Assembly: GCA_963848295.1 (NCBI GenBank)
Contig: CAWKDB010000010.1
Span: forward strand, 4,830,800-4,894,799
DNA: 64,000 bases
Reading direction: 5' to 3'
From: an uncultured delta proteobacterium
Lineage (GTDB): Bacteria > Myxococcota_A > Polyangia > Haliangiales > Haliangiaceae
Shown: piece after piece, positions 19,040 through 29,900 of the stretch
Numbering within the stretch: position 1 is the first letter of the stretch
How the letters are laid out: each line of letters opens with the position of its first letter
Notes under the pieces: generated by a model
Databases searched by the model: none
Seen by the model: only the letters and a program-made list of their open reading frames with translations
What the model was told of the DNA's origin: nothing
Program-made: the position numbers and the translations under genes

Positions 19040-20784
19040 TCCGTCTGGCTCTGGTCGCCGCCGTGCTCGTGGCTCCGGTCATCGCGTTCGCACAGCCGTC
19101 CGATACTCCGCCGGCCGGCGAGGGCAGCGGCAGCGGCAGCGGCAGCGGGAGCGCGACGCCGCCCGGTGTCGACGAAGGTCACCTCAAGGAGCTCGTCGAT
19201 CGCGAGGTCGCGCGCATCCTCAACGAGCGCGCCGCGCAAGACGCGGCCGACCGCGCCGCGAAGGATCAGGCGGCCGACAAGCCCGCCGCGACCACCCCGG
19301 CCGACGGCTCGCTCACCGGCGCGAATGGCTTCATGGATACGCGCCTCGCATTCACGCTGACGAACGAGAACACGTTGGTCAAGCCGGGCGAGACGATCCC
19401 GAGCGTCCCCGGCTGGCGCTTCGGTACGCCGAACTCGCTCGGCGTGCTGTTCTTCGACAATTACGACACGCGCTACAGCGGCTTCGAGACCCTGTCGCAC
19501 GCGACGATGTACCGCGACTATCACAAGGGGCACTTCGACGCCGAAGCCGGCCTCGTCATCCGGATCAACGAGATCTCTGGCTCGAACCTGAGCCTGTCGG
19601 ATGACGGTTCCTACATCACGCTGTCCAACTGGAAGGACCCGTCGCATCGCGATCCGACCCGCGTGTCGCTCACCGTGTTCCCGGTGTCGGCCGATCGGTT
19701 TCGCCTCGGCTACAGCTATCGGCTGTCGTGGGGTGGCAACCCCGAGTACGGCAATGCCACGTCGGCGACGCCAGGCGCGAAGGTCCAGTACGACAGCGAG
19801 AACATGTACGTCTTCGCCGGCGCCAAGAGCGCCGTGATCCTCGACCAGCGCACCGCCGAGCAGAAGTCGGCGCTCGCCGGGTTGGTCGGCGCCGGCATCG
19901 ATCCGACCGACATGCTGCGGTTCGAGGTCAACGGCGGCTACTTCGATCGAGGCTACAACGAGCTGATCGACGTCAACGACCAGAAGGTCCAGCTGTTCGG
20001 TGGATCGTTCCAGGCGTCGATCCACAAGGGCATGCCGCTGCGGTCCTCGGTCGACTACCGGCTCTATCGCTACAACGGCGAGAAGGTCAGCGACTTGTTC
20101 CTCCCGGACAAGTACCCGGGCGGTCTGTCGTGGCTCGCTCAGAGCGAGGTCGAGGTCATCGGCCAGACGCTCAAGGATCCGGCACAGACCGGCGTCACGA
20201 AGATCCAGACTGGCCACGCCGCCGACCTCAACGTCCGCGTCAAGTACAACCGGACCCGGCTCCGCCTCGACGTCAGCTTCCGCGACCTCGCGTACATCCT
20301 GCACTCGGTGCCGAGCCTGCCGACTTACGAGGACTTCCCGTCGGACTACTCGACGACCCCGGATATCTTCGCGGCGATCGGCGCCGACCAGAACTACGGC
20401 GACTTGTTGACCGTAGGCCTGATCGCCGGCATCGAACAGCCGTCGTCGTTGACCGCGCCGACCGGCATCCCCGGGAGCATGGGCGGGGGTACCGGAAAGA
20501 CCACCGCGGTGTTCGTCAACAACAACGTCGACACCTTGATCACGATCCTGCCGCAGAACGCCAAGGTCGTCCCTCAGTTCGCACTCAAGGGGACCGCGAA
20601 GCTCGACTTCGGCCGGATCTACACCGCGCTGGCCGAGGTGTTCTACATGCACAACCCGAACGCCACGACGTACCAGCGCGTCGGTTGCACGGCTGATCAG
20701 GCATGTCCGCAGCAGCCGTTCGAGTTCACGTTCGCGAATCAGAACCAGCTCGGGGTGAACGTCACTCTGCAAGCGCGGTTCTGA
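19036..20784 (+). CDS. Secreted protein, probable outer-membrane beta-barrel
   Basis: Signal peptide, coiled linker, alternating beta strands, C-terminal GVNVTLQARF barrel signature; ATGA overlap. Confidence 0.65.
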   Translation: MIRLALVAAVLVAPVIAFAQPSDTPPAGEGSGSGSGSGSATPPGVDEGHLKELVDREVARILNERAAQDAADRAAKDQAADKPAATTPADGSLTGANGFMDTRLAFTLTNENTLVKPGETIPSVPGWRFGTPNSLGVLFFDNYDTRYSGFETLSHATMYRDYHKGHFDAEAGLVIRINEISGSNLSLSDDGSYITLSNWKDPSHRDPTRVSLTVFPVSADRFRLGYSYRLSWGGNPEYGNATSATPGAKVQYDSENMYVFAGAKSAVILDQRTAEQKSALAGLVGAGIDPTDMLRFEVNGGYFDRGYNELIDVNDQKVQLFGGSFQASIHKGMPLRSSVDYRLYRYNGEKVSDLFLPDKYPGGLSWLAQSEVEVIGQTLKDPAQTGVTKIQTGHAADLNVRVKYNRTRLRLDVSFRDLAYILHSVPSLPTYEDFPSDYSTTPDIFAAIGADQNYGDLLTVGLIAGIEQPSSLTAPTGIPGSMGGGTGKTTAVFVNNNVDTLITILPQNAKVVPQFALKGTAKLDFGRIYTALAEVFYMHNPNATTYQRVGCTADQACPQQPFEFTFANQNQLGVNVTLQARF

Positions 20785-20881
20785 ACCGCGTTCGCGGCAG
20801 ATTCGATCTTTTTGGGCGGCGCTCCCGGTTGCGCCGCAAGAGCTGTGGTTAGACTCGGTGCTCGGGCGGCGATCGCTCGGG

Positions 20882-22186
20882 ATGATGACCGGATCCGACG
20901 ACCTCACGCCGATGCAATTTGCCCGCGAGCTGCTCGTGGACGGCGCGCGCTATCTCGTCGAATTGTTCAAGACAATTGCTAATGGTATCAAGTCGTTATC
21001 GCCTCTCGTGCTTGGTCTCGGCGTCGCGTGCAGCAGCGATAGCGAACCCGTTCGGCCACGCCCGGCGGCGATCGCCAAGCTCGTCGTTCCGCTGCCCCCG
21101 CCGGAGCCGAAGCTCGACACCGGACCCACGGAGCTGGGCCAGTTCAACATCACGTTCTACTACGTGATCGGCGAAGACGAGATCGTCCCCAAGGCGTCGC
21201 TGATCGCCTCGAACGACACCAAGACTGCCTCCGACGGCAGCGCGATGGACCAGCCTGATCCCGCGCACGACCCCGAGCTGGCGACAATCGCCCCACCGGC
21301 GGCCGAGATGGTGACGCTCTACTCCGGCGAGCACTGCAGCCCGATCGCGGAAGTCACGCGCGACTTCGCGATGCAGCTCCAGCTCCAGGGTACCGGCAAG
21401 CTGCGCGATGGTCGCGTCCTGAACATCTGGGGCCACTGCAACTGCCCGCGGACCCCATGCTTCAAGGTCACTGAAAACCAGTGGGGCACGGGTGGCTCCG
21501 GCCGGCCGCTACAGCCTTTCCGCACCGTGGCGGTCGACCCCAAGGTCATCAAGCTCGGCTCGTTGCTGTACGTCCCGCTGCTCGAAGGCCGGACGATGCC
21601 AGGACGCGCGCCGTGGGGCGGCTATGTTCACGACGGCTGCGTGGTCGCGGACGATACCGGGGGGGGCATCGACGGCAACCGGCTCGACCTGTTCGTCGGT
21701 CGCAAGGCGTACTTTCTGGGCATCTCGGGCAGCGGTGGCAGCCACGCCTGGGCGCGCCACGTGCCGGTGTTCGACGGCAGCAAGATCTGCGCGCGCAAGG
21801 GCCGAGTCGTCGGCCGCGCCGGTGCGATCTCAGCGGCGGCCCATCGGCCCAGAGATCGGGCTCAGTGTGCGGCGGGAACGACGACCGGAGGCGTGGTCGG
21901 CGCGGTCGCGCTCGCGCCAGTCGCGGAGTTGGTCGCCGCGGTCGACGAATCGCCGCCACCGGCGGTCGCGCCGGGGAGCGTCGGGGTCGGTAGCTTGTCG
22001 CGATCGGCCTTGATGTCGACCGTCGGCGCCGTCTTCGCTTCGGGCTCGGTCGAGATCGTCGCGACGAAGCCGACGATGCCACCGAGGATGAGCGCGAGCC
22101 CGACATCGCCGAGCCACGGGGTCTTCGGCGAGCACGTGCCGGAGCTCTCCCCCGGGCCGGGCATCGTGCAGTTCGTGATGCCGTAG
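20882..22186 (+). CDS. 3D (Asp-Asp-Asp) domain protein, MltA-like peptidoglycan lytic enzyme; true 3' end probably ~21835
   Basis: AVDPKVIKLGS, ADDTGGGIDGNRLDLF. Sequence after ~21835 is antisense to the next gene, which suggests a lost stop codon. Confidence 0.75.
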   Translation: MMTGSDDLTPMQFARELLVDGARYLVELFKTIANGIKSLSPLVLGLGVACSSDSEPVRPRPAAIAKLVVPLPPPEPKLDTGPTELGQFNITFYYVIGEDEIVPKASLIASNDTKTASDGSAMDQPDPAHDPELATIAPPAAEMVTLYSGEHCSPIAEVTRDFAMQLQLQGTGKLRDGRVLNIWGHCNCPRTPCFKVTENQWGTGGSGRPLQPFRTVAVDPKVIKLGSLLYVPLLEGRTMPGRAPWGGYVHDGCVVADDTGGGIDGNRLDLFVGRKAYFLGISGSGGSHAWARHVPVFDGSKICARKGRVVGRAGAISAAAHRPRDRAQCAAGTTTGGVVGAVALAPVAELVAAVDESPPPAVAPGSVGVGSLSRSALMSTVGAVFASGSVEIVATKPTMPPRMSASPTSPSHGVFGEHVPELSPGPGIVQFVMP

Positions 22187-22320
22187 GTGAGGCCCTCGAC
22201 CACGAGCCCGCCGAGCACGAGCCCGCCTTCGCTGTATTTCGAGATCGTCCGGGCGCGCGGGTTGGTGGGAAAGCAACCGGCCAACAACAAGGCCGAGACG
22301 GCGAGAGCGACGGGACGCAT
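21862..22320 (-). CDS. Hypothetical lipoprotein with TM segments
   Basis: MRPVALAVSALLLAGC lipobox; two hydrophobic segments. Confidence 0.65.
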   Translation of the reverse strand: MRPVALAVSALLLAGCFPTNPRARTISKYSEGGLVLGGLVVEGLTYGITNCTMPGPGESSGTCSPKTPWLGDVGLALILGGIVGFVATISTEPEAKTAPTVDIKADRDKLPTPTLPGATAGGGDSSTAATNSATGASATAPTTPPVVVPAAH

Positions 22321-22414
22321 GGCCACGGGTTGTATCAGGATCCCGCCTGCGGTTAACAGCGACGTGATCACCGACGCTCATCTTGCGCGACGCTCGGACC
22401 GCAGTCCGAAGACC

Positions 22415-23131
22415 TCAGCGATGTAGCAGCGTTGCGCCGACGATCCGGTGGTCTGCGCGCTGCGCAAACGCGACGGCTCCCGCCGATCGCCACGCCGGAT
22501 CGAGCGCGATCTCGGCCGCGTGGGTCTGGCCCGCAGCCGCGACTTTGACGAGCGAGCGCACGACACGATCCGACGCGAGGGTCTCGCCGGCGTTTTCTCC
22601 GCGCGGTACCCACGTCCGCGTACCGTCCTCGTAGATCGCCGCCCACACGTCGGCGTCGGCCGGTGCGGTCGCTTCGATCGTCACGTGGCTGGCCTGCCAG
22701 CTCGCCTTCGCGCTGACCGCGCGCTGCGGTGGAGCATCGGCGATCGCGCGCGTGACGGCGGTCGCATTCGAGCCGAGCACGCCCGACGCGCCGGCCACGA
22801 CGAGCTCGGGCGTGTAGGCGCGACCATCACCGAGTGCGCCGGCGTAGTCCTCCTGGCGCGCACTCCACGCCGCCGACGAGAACGGATCGGCCCAGCCCAA
22901 GCCGTTCCAGTAGTCGACGTGGAACGACAGCGGCGCGATCCGCCGGCCGGCGGCCTCACTGGCGGCGGCGAGCTTCGACAACAGGCGGTCGGCGGGCGGG
23001 CACGAGCTACAGCCCTGCGACGTGAACAGCTCGATCACGATCGGGGCCTCGTCGGCGCGGGCAGCCGGCGGCTCGCCCGACGCGACCGAGCAGCCCAAGG
23101 GCAGGATCACCGCGGCGATCAGTGAGCGCAT
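22415..23131 (-). CDS. DUF1223 thioredoxin-like secreted protein
   Basis: IELFTSQGCSSCPPAD, FHVDYWN, YTPE, RGENAG. Confidence 0.9.
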   Translation of the reverse strand: MRSLIAAVILPLGCSVASGEPPAARADEAPIVIELFTSQGCSSCPPADRLLSKLAAASEAAGRRIAPLSFHVDYWNGLGWADPFSSAAWSARQEDYAGALGDGRAYTPELVVAGASGVLGSNATAVTRAIADAPPQRAVSAKASWQASHVTIEATAPADADVWAAIYEDGTRTWVPRGENAGETLASDRVVRSLVKVAAAGQTHAAEIALDPAWRSAGAVAFAQRADHRIVGATLLHR

Positions 23132-23232
23132 GGTGGTCGTACGAACCAGCGGGCCGCGAGGTTACCGCGATTCATCCGCAGCGAGGGCCGCAGCAGCTGT
23201 CGCCGTTGCGGCAACCCATGTACCCGGTCCAA

Positions 23233-23447
23233 CCCGTTGCCGTGACCGTTTGCCGTTTGCCGTCGCCGCTGTTCGCCGTCGCCGTGGCCGTTTGCCGTCG
23301 CCGTGGCCGTGGCCGTTTGCCGTCGCCGTTGCCGGCGCCGTTGCCGTTTGCCGTCGCCGTTGCCGTTTGCCGTTGCCGTTTGCCGTCGCCGTTGCCGTTT
23401 GCCGTGGCCGTGGCCGTTTGCCGTGGCCGCTGTTCGCCGTTTGCCGA
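23233..23447 (+). repeat. Microsatellite array 1: mixed 6/7-mers GCCGTT(T)/GCCGTC/GCCGTG
   Basis: Read directly; GCCGT core with variable unit ends. Confidence 0.95.
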
Positions 23448-23543
23448 CTTTCGGATCGGGAGCAGGAACCGGACCTCGGATTCGGCGCCGAGGCCGTCGC
23501 CGGTTGGCTGCCGGCGTGGCGCCGGCGGCCTCGGCCGAGGTTC

Positions 23544-23867
23544 TTAGTGCGTGAGCCGCCACAGGATGGCGCGCACGTGGTCGAGCGGCTCGTCGACCGC
23601 GGCGAAGTCCTCGGCGGAGATGATGCCGCGCGCCTGTGCGATCAGCAGGGCGGTCGTGAGCTCGCTCGCGCTGCCGGCGGCGCGGCGATAAAAGTCGGGG
23701 CGATCGAGACCGACGCGCATGCGGCCTTCGCTGAGGTTGAGCGCGATGCTCTCGCCGGCGCGGACGATCTCGTCGGCGAGTGACTTGCGCGTGCGGCGGA
23801 CCTTGGCCTCGACAGAAGCGAGCTGCTGCAGGACGGCGAGGGCGAAGTCGAGGGCGTAGAACGACAT
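23544..23867 (-). CDS. Four-helix-bundle protein (23S rRNA IVP / Avd-like), copy A
   Basis: 107 aa; LADEIVRAGESIALNLSEG...AAGSASE matches the family motif L.DQ..RA..SI..NI.EG...A.GS..E; GGAGG RBS. Confidence 0.88.
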   Translation of the reverse strand: MSFYALDFALAVLQQLASVEAKVRRTRKSLADEIVRAGESIALNLSEGRMRVGLDRPDFYRRAAGSASELTTALLIAQARGIISAEDFAAVDEPLDHVRAILWRLTH

Positions 23868-23888
23868 GAAGATCCTCCGAAGTGAGTG

Positions 23889-24085
23889 GCCGATGGGTGG
23901 GAACGTCTCTCTCTCGCCCGTCGCGCCGCAGTCGCGCGGGTCCCGTGACGAGCGCGGGCGCTGACCACCGCACTCGCCGGCCGATCAACTCCGCGGCGAT
24001 CGCTCTCACACGCCGGCGCACTCGGCGCTCGGCGCGGGACAAGCGCGAAGCGGCGCAGGGCGAGAGAGACGTTCCATCCATCGGC
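23889..24085 (-). ncRNA. Putative structured leader / ncRNA (long imperfect hairpin) upstream of four-helix-bundle gene A
   Basis: GCCGATGGGTGGGAACGTCTCTCTCTCGCCC (23889-23919) is complementary to GGGCGAGAGAGACGTTCCATCCATCGGC (24058-24085), with further inner stems; homologous to leader B. Whether it acts as RNA or DNA is not established. Confidence 0.6.
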
Positions 24086-24114
24086 GCGAGCGAAGGAGCG
24101 TCGAGTGTTCCAAG

Positions 24115-24408
24115 GCCGTCGCCGTCGCCGTAGCCGTAGCCGAAGCCGTCGCCGGAGCCGGAGCCGAAGCCGTCGCCGAAGCCGAAGCCGTCGCCGAAGC
24201 CGAAGCCGTCGCCGAAGCCGTCGCCGTCGCCGAAGCCGAAGCCGAAGCCGAAGCCGAAGCCGAAGCCGAAGCCGAAGCCGAAGCCGTAGCCGTAGCCGAA
24301 GCCGTAGCCGGAGCCGAAGCCGAAGCCGAAGCCGAAGCCGAAGCCGAAGCCGTCGCCGTCGCCGAAGCCGAAGCCGAAGCCGAAGCCGAAGCCGTCGCCG
24401 ATGCCGCC
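24115..24408 (+). repeat. Microsatellite array 2: 49 in-phase GCCGNN hexamers (mostly GCCGAA, also GCCGTC/GCCGTA/GCCGGA)
   Basis: 294 nt in perfect 6-nt phase, counted by hand. Confidence 0.97.
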
Positions 24409-24421
24409 ACCTTTCGCACTC

Positions 24422-24622
24422 GCGGCTTCCGATCGCCGTGGCCGTCGCCCTGCGCCGCTTCGCGCCAGCGCCGTGCCGAGCGCCGGGACCACCGACGCGT
24501 GCGAAGGACCGCCGCAGAGTTGGATCGATCGACGCGTGCGGAGATCTGTGCCCGCGCTCGTCACGGCGCCGGCGCGAGTGCGGCGCGACGGGCGAGACGG
24601 CCCCGGCGAATCGGGCGTCCGC
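24422..24622 (+). ncRNA. Putative structured leader / ncRNA (long imperfect hairpin) upstream of four-helix-bundle gene B
   Basis: The 5' arm 24422-24483 pairs with the 3' arm 24554-24622. Core 24445-24597 is ~81% identical (hand count 124/153) to the reverse complement of 23912-24063. Confidence 0.6.
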
Positions 24623-24643
24623 TCATCCACGAAAGGCCACGCC

Positions 24644-24964
24644 ATGCTCGACGTCCTCGCTCAATCGCTCACCGTCCTCGAACAGCTCGCCCCGGTCGAG
24701 CCGAAGCTGCGGGCTCGCCGCAAGTCGCTCGCCGACGAGATCGGCCGCGCCGCCGAGAGCGTCGCGCTCAACATCGCCGAGGCGAGCGCACGCGCCGGCC
24801 TCGACCGCCCCGACATGTTCCGCCGCGCGTTCGGCAGCGCGCGCGAGCTGTCGGCCGCGCTCATGATCGCGAAGGCGCGCGGCTACATCACGCCCGACGA
24901 CTTCGCCGCGATCGATGCGCCGCTCGATCGCGTGCGCGCGATGCTGTTCCGGCTCACACGGTGA
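24644..24964 (+). CDS. Four-helix-bundle protein (23S rRNA IVP / Avd-like), copy B
   Basis: MLDVLAQSL...LADEIGRAAESVALNIAEA...AFGSARE; 106 aa, ~61% identical to copy A by hand alignment; GAAAGG RBS. Confidence 0.88.
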   Translation: MLDVLAQSLTVLEQLAPVEPKLRARRKSLADEIGRAAESVALNIAEASARAGLDRPDMFRRAFGSARELSAALMIAKARGYITPDDFAAIDAPLDRVRAMLFRLTR

Positions 24965-24995
24965 GCGCGCGCCGGGCGCTGATTCCGGCAGCCTT

Positions 24996-25195
24996 GCCGG
25001 AGCCGCAGCCGGTTCCGTACCCGGTTCCGCAGCCGCAGCCGGTTCCGTACCCGGTTCCGCAGCCGCAGCCGTAGCCGGTTCCGCAGCCGTAGCCGCAGCC
25101 GCCGCCGTACCCGGTTCCGCAGCCGCCGCCGCAGCCGGTTCCGCAGCCGCAGCCGTGGCCGTCGCCGATGCCGACAAGCCGCAACCGGTTCCGCT
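24996..25195 (+). repeat. Microsatellite array 3: NCCGNN hexamers (GCCGCA/GCCGGT/TCCGTA/CCCGGT/TCCGCA) with higher-order repeats
   Basis: 30 in-phase units from 24996 to 25175, then 3 more after a 2-nt offset. Confidence 0.95.
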
Positions 25196-25211
25196 GGCGA
25201 GATCCGGACGA

Positions 25212-26018
25212 CTACGAACCGCGCAGGGCGCGGACGATTTCTTCGCGCACCACGTGCGCCAGATCGTGTGGTTTTCCGCTCGCCGAGACGGTCGCGACCG
25301 GCGAATGGGGCGCCGGCGCGCACGCGACGACCGGCTGCGAAACCCCGGTGAGCTGCGGGTAGAGCTCGACCGCGCGGTCGGCGGCGCGCCCGATGCCGGC
25401 CTTCGCGCGCGCGGCGATCAGCGGCGCCATCGCCGATTCGGGCAGCGGGACCGGGCCACCGAGTGGGGCCGCGGCCAGTGCGATCTTCGCGAGGTGCTCG
25501 ACCAGCTCGAGCCGGAGCAGCGCGGTCTCGGCGTCCTTGCCCCACGCGATCACGCCGTGGTTGCCGAGCAGCACGACGTCGACAAGCTCGCACCACGGGG
25601 CGAGGGCGGCGCGCGCGGCGTCGCCGGGCGGCGTGAAGGGCAGCTTCGGGATCCTCGGTCCGAGCGACACGACGGCTTCCGCGATAAACGGCCGCTCGAT
25701 CGGGTGCTGCGAGCTCGAAGCGATCGCGGTGGCCGCAGGTGGGTGCGCGTGGACGACCGCGCCGACGTCGGGCCGGCGCTCGTAGACGACGAGGTGCAAG
25801 CCGATCTCGCCGAATACCTTGCCGGCGCCGATGACCTTGCCCTTGGCGTCGAGCTCGATGATGTCCTTGTCCTCGACCAGGCGCTTCGAGGTCGCGGTCG
25901 GGGTCGCGATGAACCGTGCGCCGTCGCGCGCGCTGACGTTGCCGTCGTGGTTCGCGACCCAACCAGCGGCGTGGAGCTGGCGCGCGATCTTCGCGACCTC
26001 GCGGCGCAGCGGGGTCAC
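25212..26018 (-). CDS. Class II aldolase/adducin family protein with C-terminal BMC encapsulation peptide
   Basis: DGNVS, EIGLH, VHAHPP, LLGNHG; C-terminal amphipathic helix [14 protein letters not shown] after a Pro/Ser linker. Confidence 0.88.
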
Positions 26019-26290
26019 GGGGCGGTCTCGACCGCGTCGACGATGCCGACGATCAGCGACCGGATCGGCACGATGTCGCCCTGTTTCAGGATCTGGCGGA
26101 CGCCGTTGCCCTCGGTCAGGACGAGCACCTTGTCGCCGACTCCCGCCTGCGCGTGGTCGACCGCGACGAAGCTCGCGCCGGCATCGCCGCCGTGCTCGTC
26201 GAGCGGCTGGACGACGAACAGCGCGCGCCCGGCGTACGCGGGGTGCTTGACCGCGGCCCACATCGGCCCGACGACCCGGCAGCACCTCAT
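26015..26290 (-). CDS. EutN/CcmL family microcompartment pentamer (BMC-P)
   Basis: [15 protein letters not shown]...IVGIVD. Confidence 0.9.
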
Positions 26291-26565
26291 GGCACCCGTT
26301 TCGGCGCGTCGAGCCCGTCGACGATGCCCACGATCGCGGCGTCGACCGGTACGAACCACGGCTCGAGAGCGAGCGCGGCTTCGCGCGACCCGACGAGGTA
26401 GACGAGGTCGCCGTCCCCGGCTTGGACGGTGTCGATCGCGGCCTGGAGGTCGCCGACCGGGGCGCGGTGCTCGTCGACCGGCTGGACGAGCAGGATCTTC
26501 TTGCCCTCGAGGCCGGCGGCCTTGCGCGCCGCGACGACCGTGCCTTTAACGATGCCGAGGTACAT
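26287..26565 (-). CDS. EutN/CcmL family microcompartment pentamer (BMC-P)
   Basis: [11 protein letters not shown]...[11 protein letters not shown]...[11 protein letters not shown]. Confidence 0.92.
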
Positions 26566-26617
26566 CGAGGCGCGGTTGTACCATGACGAACAGGGAGAGA
26601 CGGTGCTAGACCACGGC

Positions 26618-26956
26618 ATGGCCTACGAGCAAGAGCAGCGCGCCGCCCTGCGGATCCTCGAAGGGATCGAAGAAGGCACCATGAGCGCGGCTGACTCGGC
26701 AGCGCTTGTCGAGGACGCCGACCCGGCCCTCATCTATCTGATCTTCACGTGGCTGCGCAAGCGCTACGCCGATCACGCGAACTCCGATGCGGTGCTGGGT
26801 CGCGTCGTCGCGATCAGCGGTCGCCCGGCGGTCGCGAAGCTGATGAAAGAAGGCCAGGCCGACTCGATCGTCGAGTGGTTCGAAGACGGCTATTCTTATC
26901 GCGACCTCGGCGCGAAAGAATTCATCGCGCTGATCGTCGAGAAGCTCGAGAGCTGA
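26618..26956 (+). CDS. Hypothetical helical protein (112 aa)
   Basis: [16 protein letters not shown]...; good codon bias; fills the intergenic gap. Confidence 0.7.
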
Positions 26957-26990
26957 GACCGCCTCGTACGCTCGTTGCGTCGCCGAGGCT

Positions 26991-29900
26991 CTAGCGAATG
27001 CCGACGCCGAGCCTGGCGCGCAGCGCGAGCCAGCCCGGTAGAGCGACCGCGTGTATCAAGTGCTCCGCGGTGTCGCCGCGCGCCTTCGCCGCTGCCACGA
27101 TCGTGACCGCATCGCCGCCGACGAGCAGGGCGGCGCGATCGGCGGTGCGCTCGCACGCGGCGGCGTAACGGGCGGTGTCGAGGCTCATCGGCGGGACCGC
27201 TAGCAGCTGCTGCTCGAGCCGAGTCCGCAGCTTGACCGGCAGCGCGGCCTTGACGACCTCGTCGTGCGCGCGCTGGATGTCCTCGTCGGCGATCGACGCC
27301 GCGAGCGCATCGCGCAGCAGCGGCGGGCCGAACAGCCGCGCGACCGAGGCGACCAGCCGCGCCGATTCGGTGGCGGGCAAGCCGGCGAACGCGAGGTGCT
27401 CGGGCCGCGTGAGCTCGACGGCGCGCGCGAGCAGGGCGCGGATCGTGTCGTGCGGCAGTGGCGAGGTCTCGGCGGCGAGCCGAGGACCGATGACGATCAC
27501 CGGCGTCGCGGCGGCGACGACCGTGACGTCCGCGCCTTCGTCGACTTGATACAGCATGACCGCGCCGGTGCCGAGCACGGTGGTCAACCGCGGGAACATC
27601 GCGTGCGCGGCGGCGTGAGTCGTCGCCGGAATCAGGCGCGCGCCGGAGCAGCCCATGCGCGCGAACGCCTCTTCGAGATCGGGCCACAGCAGCGCGGCGG
27701 CTTCGGCCAACGTCTGCGCGATCGGCGCGAGCACCGGGTCGGCGGTCGCGATCAAGAGCTGATCGGTCGCGTCGACCGCCGAGGGGTACGATTCGTCGTC
27801 CCGAATCGCGTACGGCTTGTTGACCTGGAGGAACGCGCTCTGATGGACGTCGGCGGTGTGACCGACGCCGATCGCGAGCTCGAGCGTCGCGCGCGCGGCA
27901 TCGAGCTTGTTCTGGCGGCGCAGCTCGTCGGCCCACGCGACGAGATCGGCGAGCGCCCCGGTCTGTGCGGTGATCGCACCGAGGTGCGTCGCGATCGCTT
28001 CTTTGCGCGCCGGGTCGTCGATCGTGGCTTGCTTGCCGAGATCGACGAGCGCACGCCGCGCCTGGGTCGCGCCCTCGGAATCGGGTGCGATCGCGATCGC
28101 GTGCTCGAACGCGGGTAGCGCTTGCCGGGTGTCGCCGCGTTGTGCGCGCGCTTGGCCGAGCCGGGTCGACAGCAACGCGCGATGCGCGGCGGACGCGGCG
28201 GAGAACCGATCGTCCTTCGCGGTGACGAGCTTGGTCAGCATCGACGCGGCGGCGTCGACATCGCCTTGGGCGAGCGCGAGCTCCGACGCGAGATCGACGG
28301 CATCGACATCGTATGGATCGTTGTCGACGGCGCGATCGGCGGCGGCACGAGCGCGCGTCTTGTCGCCGGCGGCGAGGTAATCGTTCGCGGCGCGCAGGTG
28401 ACGGGCCGCGCGATCGGCCGGCGTCGCGCCGAACGCGGCCATCAGCTCGGCGGTCCGCGCGCTACCGGCGAGATCGCCGGCGAGGTCTTGGCGCTCGAGC
28501 AGCTTCTCGAGCAGCGGGACGTGCTTGGCCTCGAGCGGTTGCGCCGACGCGACCGCCGCGCCGTAACAGGTCAACGCGCGCTCCTCGTCGTGCAGCATCA
28601 GCAGCGACATGTCGCCGAGGGCCTCGAACAGCTTCATCCGCTCGGCCGGATCTTCGGTCGCGGTCGCCTGCCGCGTCAGCAAGTCGGCCGCCTTGCGGTG
28701 ATCGCCTTGCTCCATCGCGATCTCGGCGAGCGCCTGTAACGCGGGCGCGTAGTTCGGCTTGAGCTCGAGGGCGCGCGTGTACAACGGCGCCGCCTTCTCG
28801 GGCCGGAGCGAGCGAATCTCGGCGAGCGCCGCGTGATAAAGGCCCTGCGCGACCTCGGTCGGATACTTCACCGAGTCTTCGTGCGTCGCGAGCGGCGACA
28901 GATGCAACGCCGCTTCGCGCCAGCGCCGCGCCTTGTAGCGGTTCTCGCCGAGCGCGAGCTTGATCAAGAGATGCCCGCGATGCATGCGATCGGCGGCGAC
29001 CAGCGTCTGATACGCGTCCTCGTCGCGACCGAGCTTCTCGTGCGCGGTCGCGAGCCGGCGGTGCAGGTCCGCGACGAGCGCGGTCGGCGCGGCGGCCAGG
29101 GTCGTGCCATCGAGGACCTCGCGCAGGAACGCCTCGAGATCGGCCCACCGCTCGGCGTCGGCATAGAAGTCGGCGAGCGCGACGATCGCCGGCAAGTGGT
29201 CCGGCACGCTGCCGAGTGCTTCGAGCAACCGGCGCTCGGCCGCCGATTCGATGCCGGCGGCGCGCGACAGCGCGGCGAGCTGAGTGAGCACGCGCGCCCT
29301 CTCCGGCGGGGTGAGCGTCTCGGCTTCGAGCCGCTTCTCGAGAATGCGGGTCGCAGCATCGGGATCGCCGCCTTGCTCGGACAGCCCGGCGAGCGCCCAG
29401 GTCGCGTCGGCGTGATACGGCCGCAGCGTCAGCACGCGCTCGAACGCGGCATGCGCGCCGGCCATATCGTTGACGCGCGAGCGCAGGACCTCACCGGCCG
29501 CCATCAACGCGGCGATCTTGACGTCCTCGTCCTTCGCGCTCTCGGCTTCGCGCAGCTTCGCGTCGGCGAACGCGCGCGGATCCTCGTCGGGCGACGCGAG
29601 CTGAGCGAGCACCGCGAGCGCGGTCGGGTGCTCCGGCACCAGCGCGAGCGCGTGATCGATCGAGGCACGCGCGGCGTCGCGGTCGGACAGCTTGTCGACC
29701 TGGAGCTGCGCGAGCCGGATGTAGAGCCCGGCGAGCTCGCCCTTGCCGCCGCCGGCCTCGGCGTGCGCGGACAGCGTGTCGATTCGATTCTCGAGGATCG
29801 CCGAGGCTTCGCGGTCGCGTCCCGCCTTCGAGAGCGCGGCGACGAGGGCGTCGGCGAGTGCGGCGTCGTCCGGCGCGATCGTGCGTGCGTGGCGCAGCGT

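Follow-up and report, generated by a model that had tools for sequence, protein, structure and literature searches.

A conserved, uncatalogued fold-back of about 200 bases, likely a DNA handle on small mobile cassettes of soil myxobacteria

REP and REPIN elements are hairpins in the extragenic space behind stop codons, often as inverted pairs, with a GTAG/GGAG foot and with RAYT HUH transposases. Integron attC sites are imperfect hairpins whose arms vary, with bases that are always unpaired on one arm and with one strand preferred; their defining cores at the hairpin base are RYYYAAC/GTTRRRY, and recombination uses the folded bottom strand. Here we describe a strongly conserved, uncatalogued fold-back of about 200 bases, likely a DNA handle on small mobile cassettes in soil myxobacteria, found in a window of 64,000 nucleotides (the whole stretch of DNA analysed) from an uncultured delta proteobacterium of the Haliangiaceae. 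An earlier note on this DNA had suggested attC- or REP-like logic, and neither suggestion held at the level of defining sequences: among 39 aligned hairpins the REP foot is present in 0/39 on the mRNA strand and 1/39 on the opposite strand, and the attC cores in 0/39 on either strand. With REP/REPIN the element shares hairpin DNA behind stops, and RAYT-like genes are found in 87/90 genomes of the genus, but its stem is about 60 bp and the genomes G084 and G102 have no Y1 match. One hairpin stands just upstream of a RAYT-like gene and points away from it (L418, genome G050), and the hairpin is absent at 6/6 other Y1 loci and at the Y1 genes of this genome. With attC it shares the imperfect hairpin, the variable arms, the unpaired bases on one arm and the preferred strand, but it precedes its ORF and does not follow it; the integron integrase profile TIGR02249 stayed below cut-off in 5/5 genomes, the assemblies being incomplete. 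We also observe about ten RAYT-like Y1 HUH genes in this genome (G000; C10:3807k and nine other sites), several of them with common upstream sequence.

The genes beside the hairpin encode four-helix bundles of the S23p/IVP/Avd-like family. In the 23S rRNA intervening sequences of Coxiella and Leptospira, a terminal stem within the rRNA carries an ORF in its loop and RNase III excises the insert, as given in the accessible text of PMC4990558; the present element resembles them in its PF05635/TIGR02436 family and as a selfish insert with a long stem (PMC4990558), whereas its hairpin lies wholly upstream of the ORF, is intergenic, occurs in many copies and has flanking arrays. We rejected an intervening sequence as its identity, the flanks being protein genes, the window having no rRNA match and the ORFs not being enclosed by inverted repeats. 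Avd of diversity-generating retroelements is a reverse-transcriptase partner that holds flipped-out bases of an RNA stem-loop between its five subunits, according to the accessible text of 10.1101/2023.10.23.563531; the likeness to the proteins studied here lies in the fold and in Avd reading a stem-loop through such bases. Unlike these retroelements as presented in the accessible text of PMC10053308, the locus has no reverse transcriptase or template/variable repeat and its hairpin is longer and DNA-looking. A diversity-generating retroelement was rejected, with no reverse transcriptase near the window cassette and no template/variable repeat pair in 20000-29000. Four-helix-bundle genes of this kind have also been noted inside cas loci, an occurrence consistent with sporadic insertion (PMC3936711, accessible text).

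Mycobacterial REP13E12/DUF222 genes have been treated as repeated genes and recombination substrates (PMC13157036, PMC10589994); at related loci the second cargo of our hairpin is likewise a gene in many copies, which matches DUF222 and HNH weakly, and the accessible text of these papers describes no terminal hairpin and no four-helix-bundle link. VIPR loci have 9-16 pentamer repeats, each with a hypervariable NN, next to a RAMP-family protein (10.64898/2026.04.26.720920). The arrays studied here are alike in that a fixed core alternates with a variable dinucleotide, the other strand reading GGC-NN-C here versus GGY-NN there, but they are hexamers with runs and their partners are four-helix bundles, not a RAMP protein; the accessible text of the preprint contains neither "four helix" nor "Avd". 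A VIPR-like code was rejected because neighbouring units are too often identical (34% versus 12% expected), in arrays with long runs and higher-order duplications. We found no description of the hairpin or the cassette in the literature, although motif catalogues in supplements or in subscription journals might contain one.

Layout, copies and empty sites of the cassette

In the window, the insertion is limited on the left by a promoter-like motif, GTAAC...CGTA (23140-23165, reverse strand), of the host DUF1223 gene (22415-23131, reverse; PF06764, E 1e-54), a neighbour outside the element, and on the right by the stop codon of a host class II aldolase gene (25212-26003, reverse; PF00596, E 3e-40). 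Between them we find a left array of GCCGNN/GCCGTTT repeats (23238-23448, forward; sparse units beginning at 23187), the 3' tail of gene A (23449-23543, reverse), which varies among copies and is cut at different lengths, gene A (23544-23867, reverse; 107 aa), hairpin A (23889-24085, reverse; about 60 Watson-Crick pairs), a middle array of 49 GCCGNN hexamers (24115-24408, forward), hairpin B (24429-24623, forward), gene B (24644-24964, forward; 106 aa, 61-65% identical to A), a small 3' hairpin within the B tail that is alike in most B copies (24985-25000, forward), and a right array of (G/T/A)CCGNN repeats (24996-25208, forward) ending right before the host stop codon. The GTAAC...CGTA motif is also present at relatives' empty sites and is kept upstream of DUF1223 throughout the genus; we take it to be probably an alternative-sigma or ECF-type promoter, and no sigma-70 promoters were found in 23100-25300. 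The aldolase gene and two EutN/CcmL genes (25212-26619), which belong to a microcompartment-like locus, directly adjoin the cassette.

Genes A and B both score above the PF05635 and TIGR02436 cut-offs. The model of protein A (pLDDT 95) reaches TM 0.83-0.90 to the best chains of 2GSC, 2RLD and Avd (0.83-0.86 to the Avd chains), and by analogy with these three we infer that the A and B proteins would be nucleic-acid-binding homopentamers. The whole unit of array, A, hairpin, array, hairpin, B and array spans about 2.05 kb and is found at 10 places dispersed through this genome, B being truncated at one of them; the 10 cassettes are 90-99% identical in nucleotides and have unrelated flanks. Beyond them, the genome contains a further divergent pair, a gene standing alone and a broken copy. 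Variation among the copies is mostly synonymous, with pN/pS of 0.029/0.156 for gene A among 10 copies and 0.026/0.182 for gene B among 9, and the cassette copies are under purifying selection. They have also recombined and differ by 16-18% at synonymous sites, which we count against the explanation favoured below, as the activity may not be current.

Comparison with relatives reveals the empty state of the site. In the nearest relative (G104), whose flanking genes are about 87-91% identical to those here, the aldolase stop and the DUF1223 promoter motif are 7 nt apart, versus about 2,046 nt in the window. Across 31 relatives' loci, 20 of which were picked for having both host genes on one contig, the aldolase-DUF1223 gap is at most 152 nt in 19; of the other loci one is the G062 case described below, and the rest show other genes, an inversion or the end of a contig. 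Five other cassette sites in G104 proved to be empty (two), a decayed remnant (one) and rearranged or unresolved (two), and a sixth shared site has a further decayed B copy. G084 has a set of 10 divergent pairs, whose partner gene comes from a different subfamily and carries that subfamily's version of the hairpin; four-helix-bundle partners nearly always face in opposite directions, whether divergent or convergent. In G062 (L067/L134), another unit of hairpin and four-helix-bundle gene, 57% identical to A, stands right behind the same aldolase stop; it is apparently half of a convergent pair and may mark an insertion hot spot. At the same site in G098 (L060) an inverted pair of short hexamer arrays is present with no gene.

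A consistent target duplication was not found, one site having a 6-bp repeat and the window site none, and no circle or excision junction of the cassette was seen; four DNA contig sets held no joint spanning the cassette and are uninformative on the point. A MITE or insertion sequence was rejected, given ends made of variable arrays and no consistent target-site duplication. We conclude with high confidence that the hairpins are part of a mobile multi-copy cassette. Hairpins stand close behind host stop codons, and about half of the informative site pairs among the copies are incompatible (197/406 and 189/325), two observations that would also suit a dispersed REP-like repeat behind stops, serving as an insulator or RNase target and propagated by array recombination and gene conversion with no dedicated enzyme. 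We consider such a repeat quite unlikely: the empty G104 site has no array to recombine with, and all 24/24 strong hairpin matches in this genome adjoin a four-helix-bundle gene.

A second type of cassette was also observed in this genome, consisting of a four-helix-bundle gene between terminal inverted repeats with CTAG at the ends (C2:271k, C2:437k, C2:797k, C10:2647k, C10:3176k, C10:3468k and C10:4056k). The copy at C2:271k has a 12-bp direct repeat, and group II intron sequence interrupts or adjoins several of the copies.

Fold, covariation and strand of the hairpin

Next, we compared the two hairpins of the window, both of which are supported by folding and covariation. The core arms of hairpin A lie at 24019-24036 and 23940-23955 (reverse), with C·T and C·A mismatches, and its apex motif at 23986-23998 (reverse); in hairpin B the core arms are at 24472-24489 and 24554-24570 (forward), with the C·T mismatch, and the apex motif at 24510-24522 (forward). 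The non-coding cores, 23912-24063 as reverse complement and 24445-24597, had been put at about 81% identity by hand, and counting gives just that (124/153), above the 68% at third codon positions of genes A and B. The inverted-repeat arms measure 84% and 79%, and each hairpin folds with z = -6.0, with 0/200 shuffles folding equally well. The compensatory swap that had been read from the letters, from GTCCC/GGGAC to GCGCC/GGCGC, is present, as are outer stems that differ in sequence and pair in both copies. Some of the finer detail needed amending: the C-T mismatch and an irregular loop by GCCC/GGGC do stand at matching places in both copies, and that loop is asymmetric, the "AC bulge" of the earlier note being one of two possible drawings; the stem end, placed about 21 nt before the ATG, is at 21 nt in B and at 24 nt in A, with a median of 20 nt across homologs.

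For a larger set, gene A was the query, and the named relatives recovered are mostly titled Kofleriaceae or Haliangiales. The 77 gene loci were reduced to 53 with the core motif and enough flank and to 35 at <90% identity, and the final alignment of 39 rows holds 34 homologs (one without a 5' arm was dropped) and 5 copies from this genome. On these 39 sequences RNAalifold returns 26 pairs, 19 of them with change on both sides. In a named 30-pair structure, 88.4% of cells are paired and 20 pairs change on both sides; 0/500 shuffles reach the observed value and slid controls pair 27-51%, controls that do not fully remove the relatedness among the sequences. Three pairs are invariant. The C·T core position is unpaired in 34/39 and the neighbouring C·A position in 25/39, bulges fall mainly on the 3' arm (234 versus 63 gap positions), and the apex has a loosely conserved motif. 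The covariation strongly supports the earlier view of a structure under selection, which we regard as practically certain. The fold matched no family in Rfam 15: the window has no match at gathering score, and 23100-25300 gives only chance matches at E >= 2. The fixed mismatches together with the apex motif imply a specific reader, which argues against a dispersed repeat behind stops.

Upon examining the strand, we used a strand-neutral alignment of the arms covering 87/90 hairpins from 21 genomes, with events counted once per genome and core columns left out. The bias between G-U and A-C pairs, which the earlier note had named as a way to assign the strand, was obtained from 137 isolated variable mismatches: on the mRNA strand there are 15 G·T and 30 A·C, along with 33 C·T and 28 C·C. 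RNA structures are expected to show a wobble excess, and neither hairpin strand shows one that is RNA-like, with G·T accounting for 11% of the mismatches when the mRNA strand is read and 22% when its complement is read, versus 68% in tRNAs (39/57 in 55 tRNA genes of this genome, counted by a procedure that differs from that for the hairpins). The scarcity of G·T on the mRNA strand points to DNA and not to an mRNA leader. Additionally, the opposite strand folds better as DNA in 19/21 genomes and as RNA in 17/21, and hairpins linked to HNH genes have the same bias (A·C 15 versus G·T 5); the sign test per genome is weak (9 versus 2, p = 0.065), kin are not independent, and hairpin A of the window has no strand preference.

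These figures bear on the possibility that the hairpin is a structured RNA, an mRNA leader or an antisense, bound by an Avd-like pentamer and autoregulatory, with the cassette moving by other means. Its spacing is fixed, the gene start lying 61-132 nt past the core in pattern-picked loci besides the median of 20 nt from stem end to ATG, and Avd itself binds an RNA stem-loop by flipped-out bases (10.1101/2023.10.23.563531, accessible text); the better RNA fold of the opposite strand would suit the antisense form, and in G084 the partner hairpin (L091-L100) is a near-perfect inverted repeat enclosing the ribosome site and the ATG, which fits an RNA role. On the other side stand the low G·T fractions, hairpins that lie hundreds of bases from HNH genes or follow them in inverted orientation, the presence of several hairpins in genomes with no PF05635 match (G003, G005), and anti-Shine-Dalgarno pairing that beats shuffled flanks in only 3/34. 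General sequestration of the Shine-Dalgarno sequence, which had appeared in 29/35 without a control, was rejected on that last count. We therefore judge an RNA identity unlikely. Between the two readings that the earlier note had offered, the folded-DNA site fits better and the cis-regulatory RNA less well, because of the few G·T, the lack of general Shine-Dalgarno pairing and the hairpins without a four-helix-bundle gene. The hairpin probably acts as DNA, and likely serves, when folded, as a recognition site; the strand in question is probably the one opposite the mRNA.

The same strand is the one that a cDNA would be, which together with the role of Avd as a reverse-transcriptase partner (10.1101/2023.10.23.563531, accessible text) and the cassette end cut to variable lengths would accord with a non-autonomous retroelement, in which a reverse transcriptase in trans and an Avd-like helper copy RNA and the hairpin folds in the cDNA. 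However, the three full-length reverse-transcriptase genes of this genome look like group II intron proteins (a class judged from sequence), RVT_1 finds nothing in G076 or in G047, which is 97% complete and has 6 copies, and the window locus has no template/variable repeat pair, with variation among copies being mostly synonymous. A retroelement is thus very unlikely.

Repeat arrays and a second cargo

We observed tandem repeats within 350 nt of the outer foot in 70/89 hairpins outside this genome, compared with 132/800 after-stop windows in this genome and 20/64 distant windows in the same loci. They are mostly CCG-based hexamers, with units of 7-14 nt and longer also occurring, and this variation of the repeat unit in length and sequence argues against the dispersed repeat with no dedicated enzyme. 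The arrays differ in every cassette copy; in the middle array the end units are largely common to copies and the interior is different in each. Two further observations would suit that dispersed repeat: the three arrays are usually co-oriented (33/40 genes with both arrays called), and of the 67 array loci in this genome 37 are not near a cassette. By a crude test, about half of these 37 stand-alone CCG-based hexamer arrays fall within reading frames, where they form low-complexity linkers. At four loci, spread over three genomes, what is repeated is the 5' arm of the hairpin itself, stopping at the core GCCG/A, which in this small sample marks a candidate break point; two other partial duplicates of the arm end about 40 nt earlier. 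Templating of the arrays by the apex motif was rejected, since by eye CCG-based arrays persist when the apex changes.

Furthermore, the hairpin is not confined to four-helix-bundle genes. A search of metagenomes by DNA alone gave 120 loci, 34 of them full hairpins; 32 of these have 250 nt or more of downstream sequence, and a four-helix-bundle gene follows in 22 and is lacking in 10. From the search of the genus, in which matches were hand-picked for hairpin likeness and their flanks fetched, so that the sample is not random, 41 hairpins were tallied, with a four-helix-bundle gene in 7, an HNH gene in 17, neither in 8 and too little flank in 9. Hence, among the 25 hairpins with enough flank and no four-helix-bundle gene, 17 are accompanied on their inner side, at no more than 2.2 kb, by a DUF222-like HNH gene, and the other 8, with neither cargo type nearby, would again fit a dispersed repeat. 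Genus-wide hairpin counts (73/90 genomes) are pattern matches that include chance matches in coding DNA, and the unpublished genomes G010 and G057 are counted in the genus tallies but support no other result. The hairpin-linked HNH genes encode 400-700 aa with weak DUF222 and HNH matches; among 11 of the proteins PF02720 matches 5 (3 above cut-off) and PF01844 matches 9 (1 above cut-off). Inward hairpins stand at both ends of the HNH gene at L379, L459 and L462, and at L381 a stretch of about 1 kb between two inward hairpins contains no gene.

On a tree of 65 hairpins, 7 changes of the HNH label are needed, at least 5 of them forced by supported branches, with a bootstrap that is not fully settled, and cargo therefore seems to have been swapped more than once. 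When HNH loci were picked independently, only 1/22 had the hairpin, and this genome's two HNH genes are without it. No homology was found between the four-helix bundle and the HNH protein, and a model of the latter (pLDDT 70, pTM 0.38) gave no fold match at E <= 0.001; part of the L454:672-1853 model has a weak, non-significant likeness to ParB DNA-binding domains (E 0.2-0.4). The 10-bp palindrome CCCACGTGGG is found near DUF222-like HNH genes, with 3/4 occurrences in this genome within 4 kb of one, and also downstream of some four-helix-bundle genes (C2:385k and C10:2181k here; L018, L019 and L025). Among viral contigs, 23 pattern matches included no hairpin, and in the phylum sample 0/250 other genomes matched the strict pattern, a weak result, since the sample's four members of the same family also gave no match.

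A proposed mechanism and its significance

On balance, and with modest confidence, we favour as the best explanation that this is the conserved hairpin of a multi-copy inserted cassette and serves as a folded DNA recognition site, not as a regulatory RNA leader. A protein would read the mismatch core on the extruded strand, opposite the mRNA; a nick near the core, most likely by a DUF222-like HNH nuclease in trans, would start copying of the unit; the copy would land in the space that follows a host stop codon; and stutter during synthesis at the foot of the hairpin would leave the repeat arrays. The four-helix-bundle protein may be an Avd-like accessory that, by analogy with Avd, would bind the hairpin, or it may be a passenger. 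We count against this explanation that the hairpins of the window cassette are internal and not terminal.

The HNH protein is the best candidate for the nick because no other nuclease was repeatedly found alongside the hairpin and because 73/90 genomes of the genus have it. That it is itself the mover we hold as a possibility on the doubtful side, because the family was not found in five cassette-bearing genomes: at E <= 1e-30, with a profile built partly from the hand-picked hairpin loci themselves, it is missing from the incomplete assemblies of G047, G102, G062, G075 and G085, and G084 has one weak match. An obligate partner was rejected for each of Y1 HUH, reverse transcriptase, integron integrase and DUF222-like HNH, every one of which is absent in some cassette-bearing genomes, themselves incomplete. 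Bolder, and in our view rather improbable, is a mobile system that dispenses with a transposase, in which the hairpin would be the end that is recognised, HNH and Avd-like partners would be interchangeable or cooperate, the core would be nicked, a circular copy would enter and stutter at the foot would write the repeats. We speculate that the divergent and convergent gene pairs are circular permutations.

S23p/Avd-like four-helix bundles outside diversity-generating retroelements, and DUF222-HNH nucleases, are widespread and long-unexplained families, and the hairpin offers both a defined candidate substrate: some of its pairs never vary, its mismatches are fixed, one strand is preferred and a candidate break point is marked. 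Should it prove to be a mobility site, DNA would be spreading here with no recognised transposase, which may explain the short tandem repeats around these genes. Were the transposase-free reading true, one mechanism would serve two gene families and would be a source of bacterial microsatellites.
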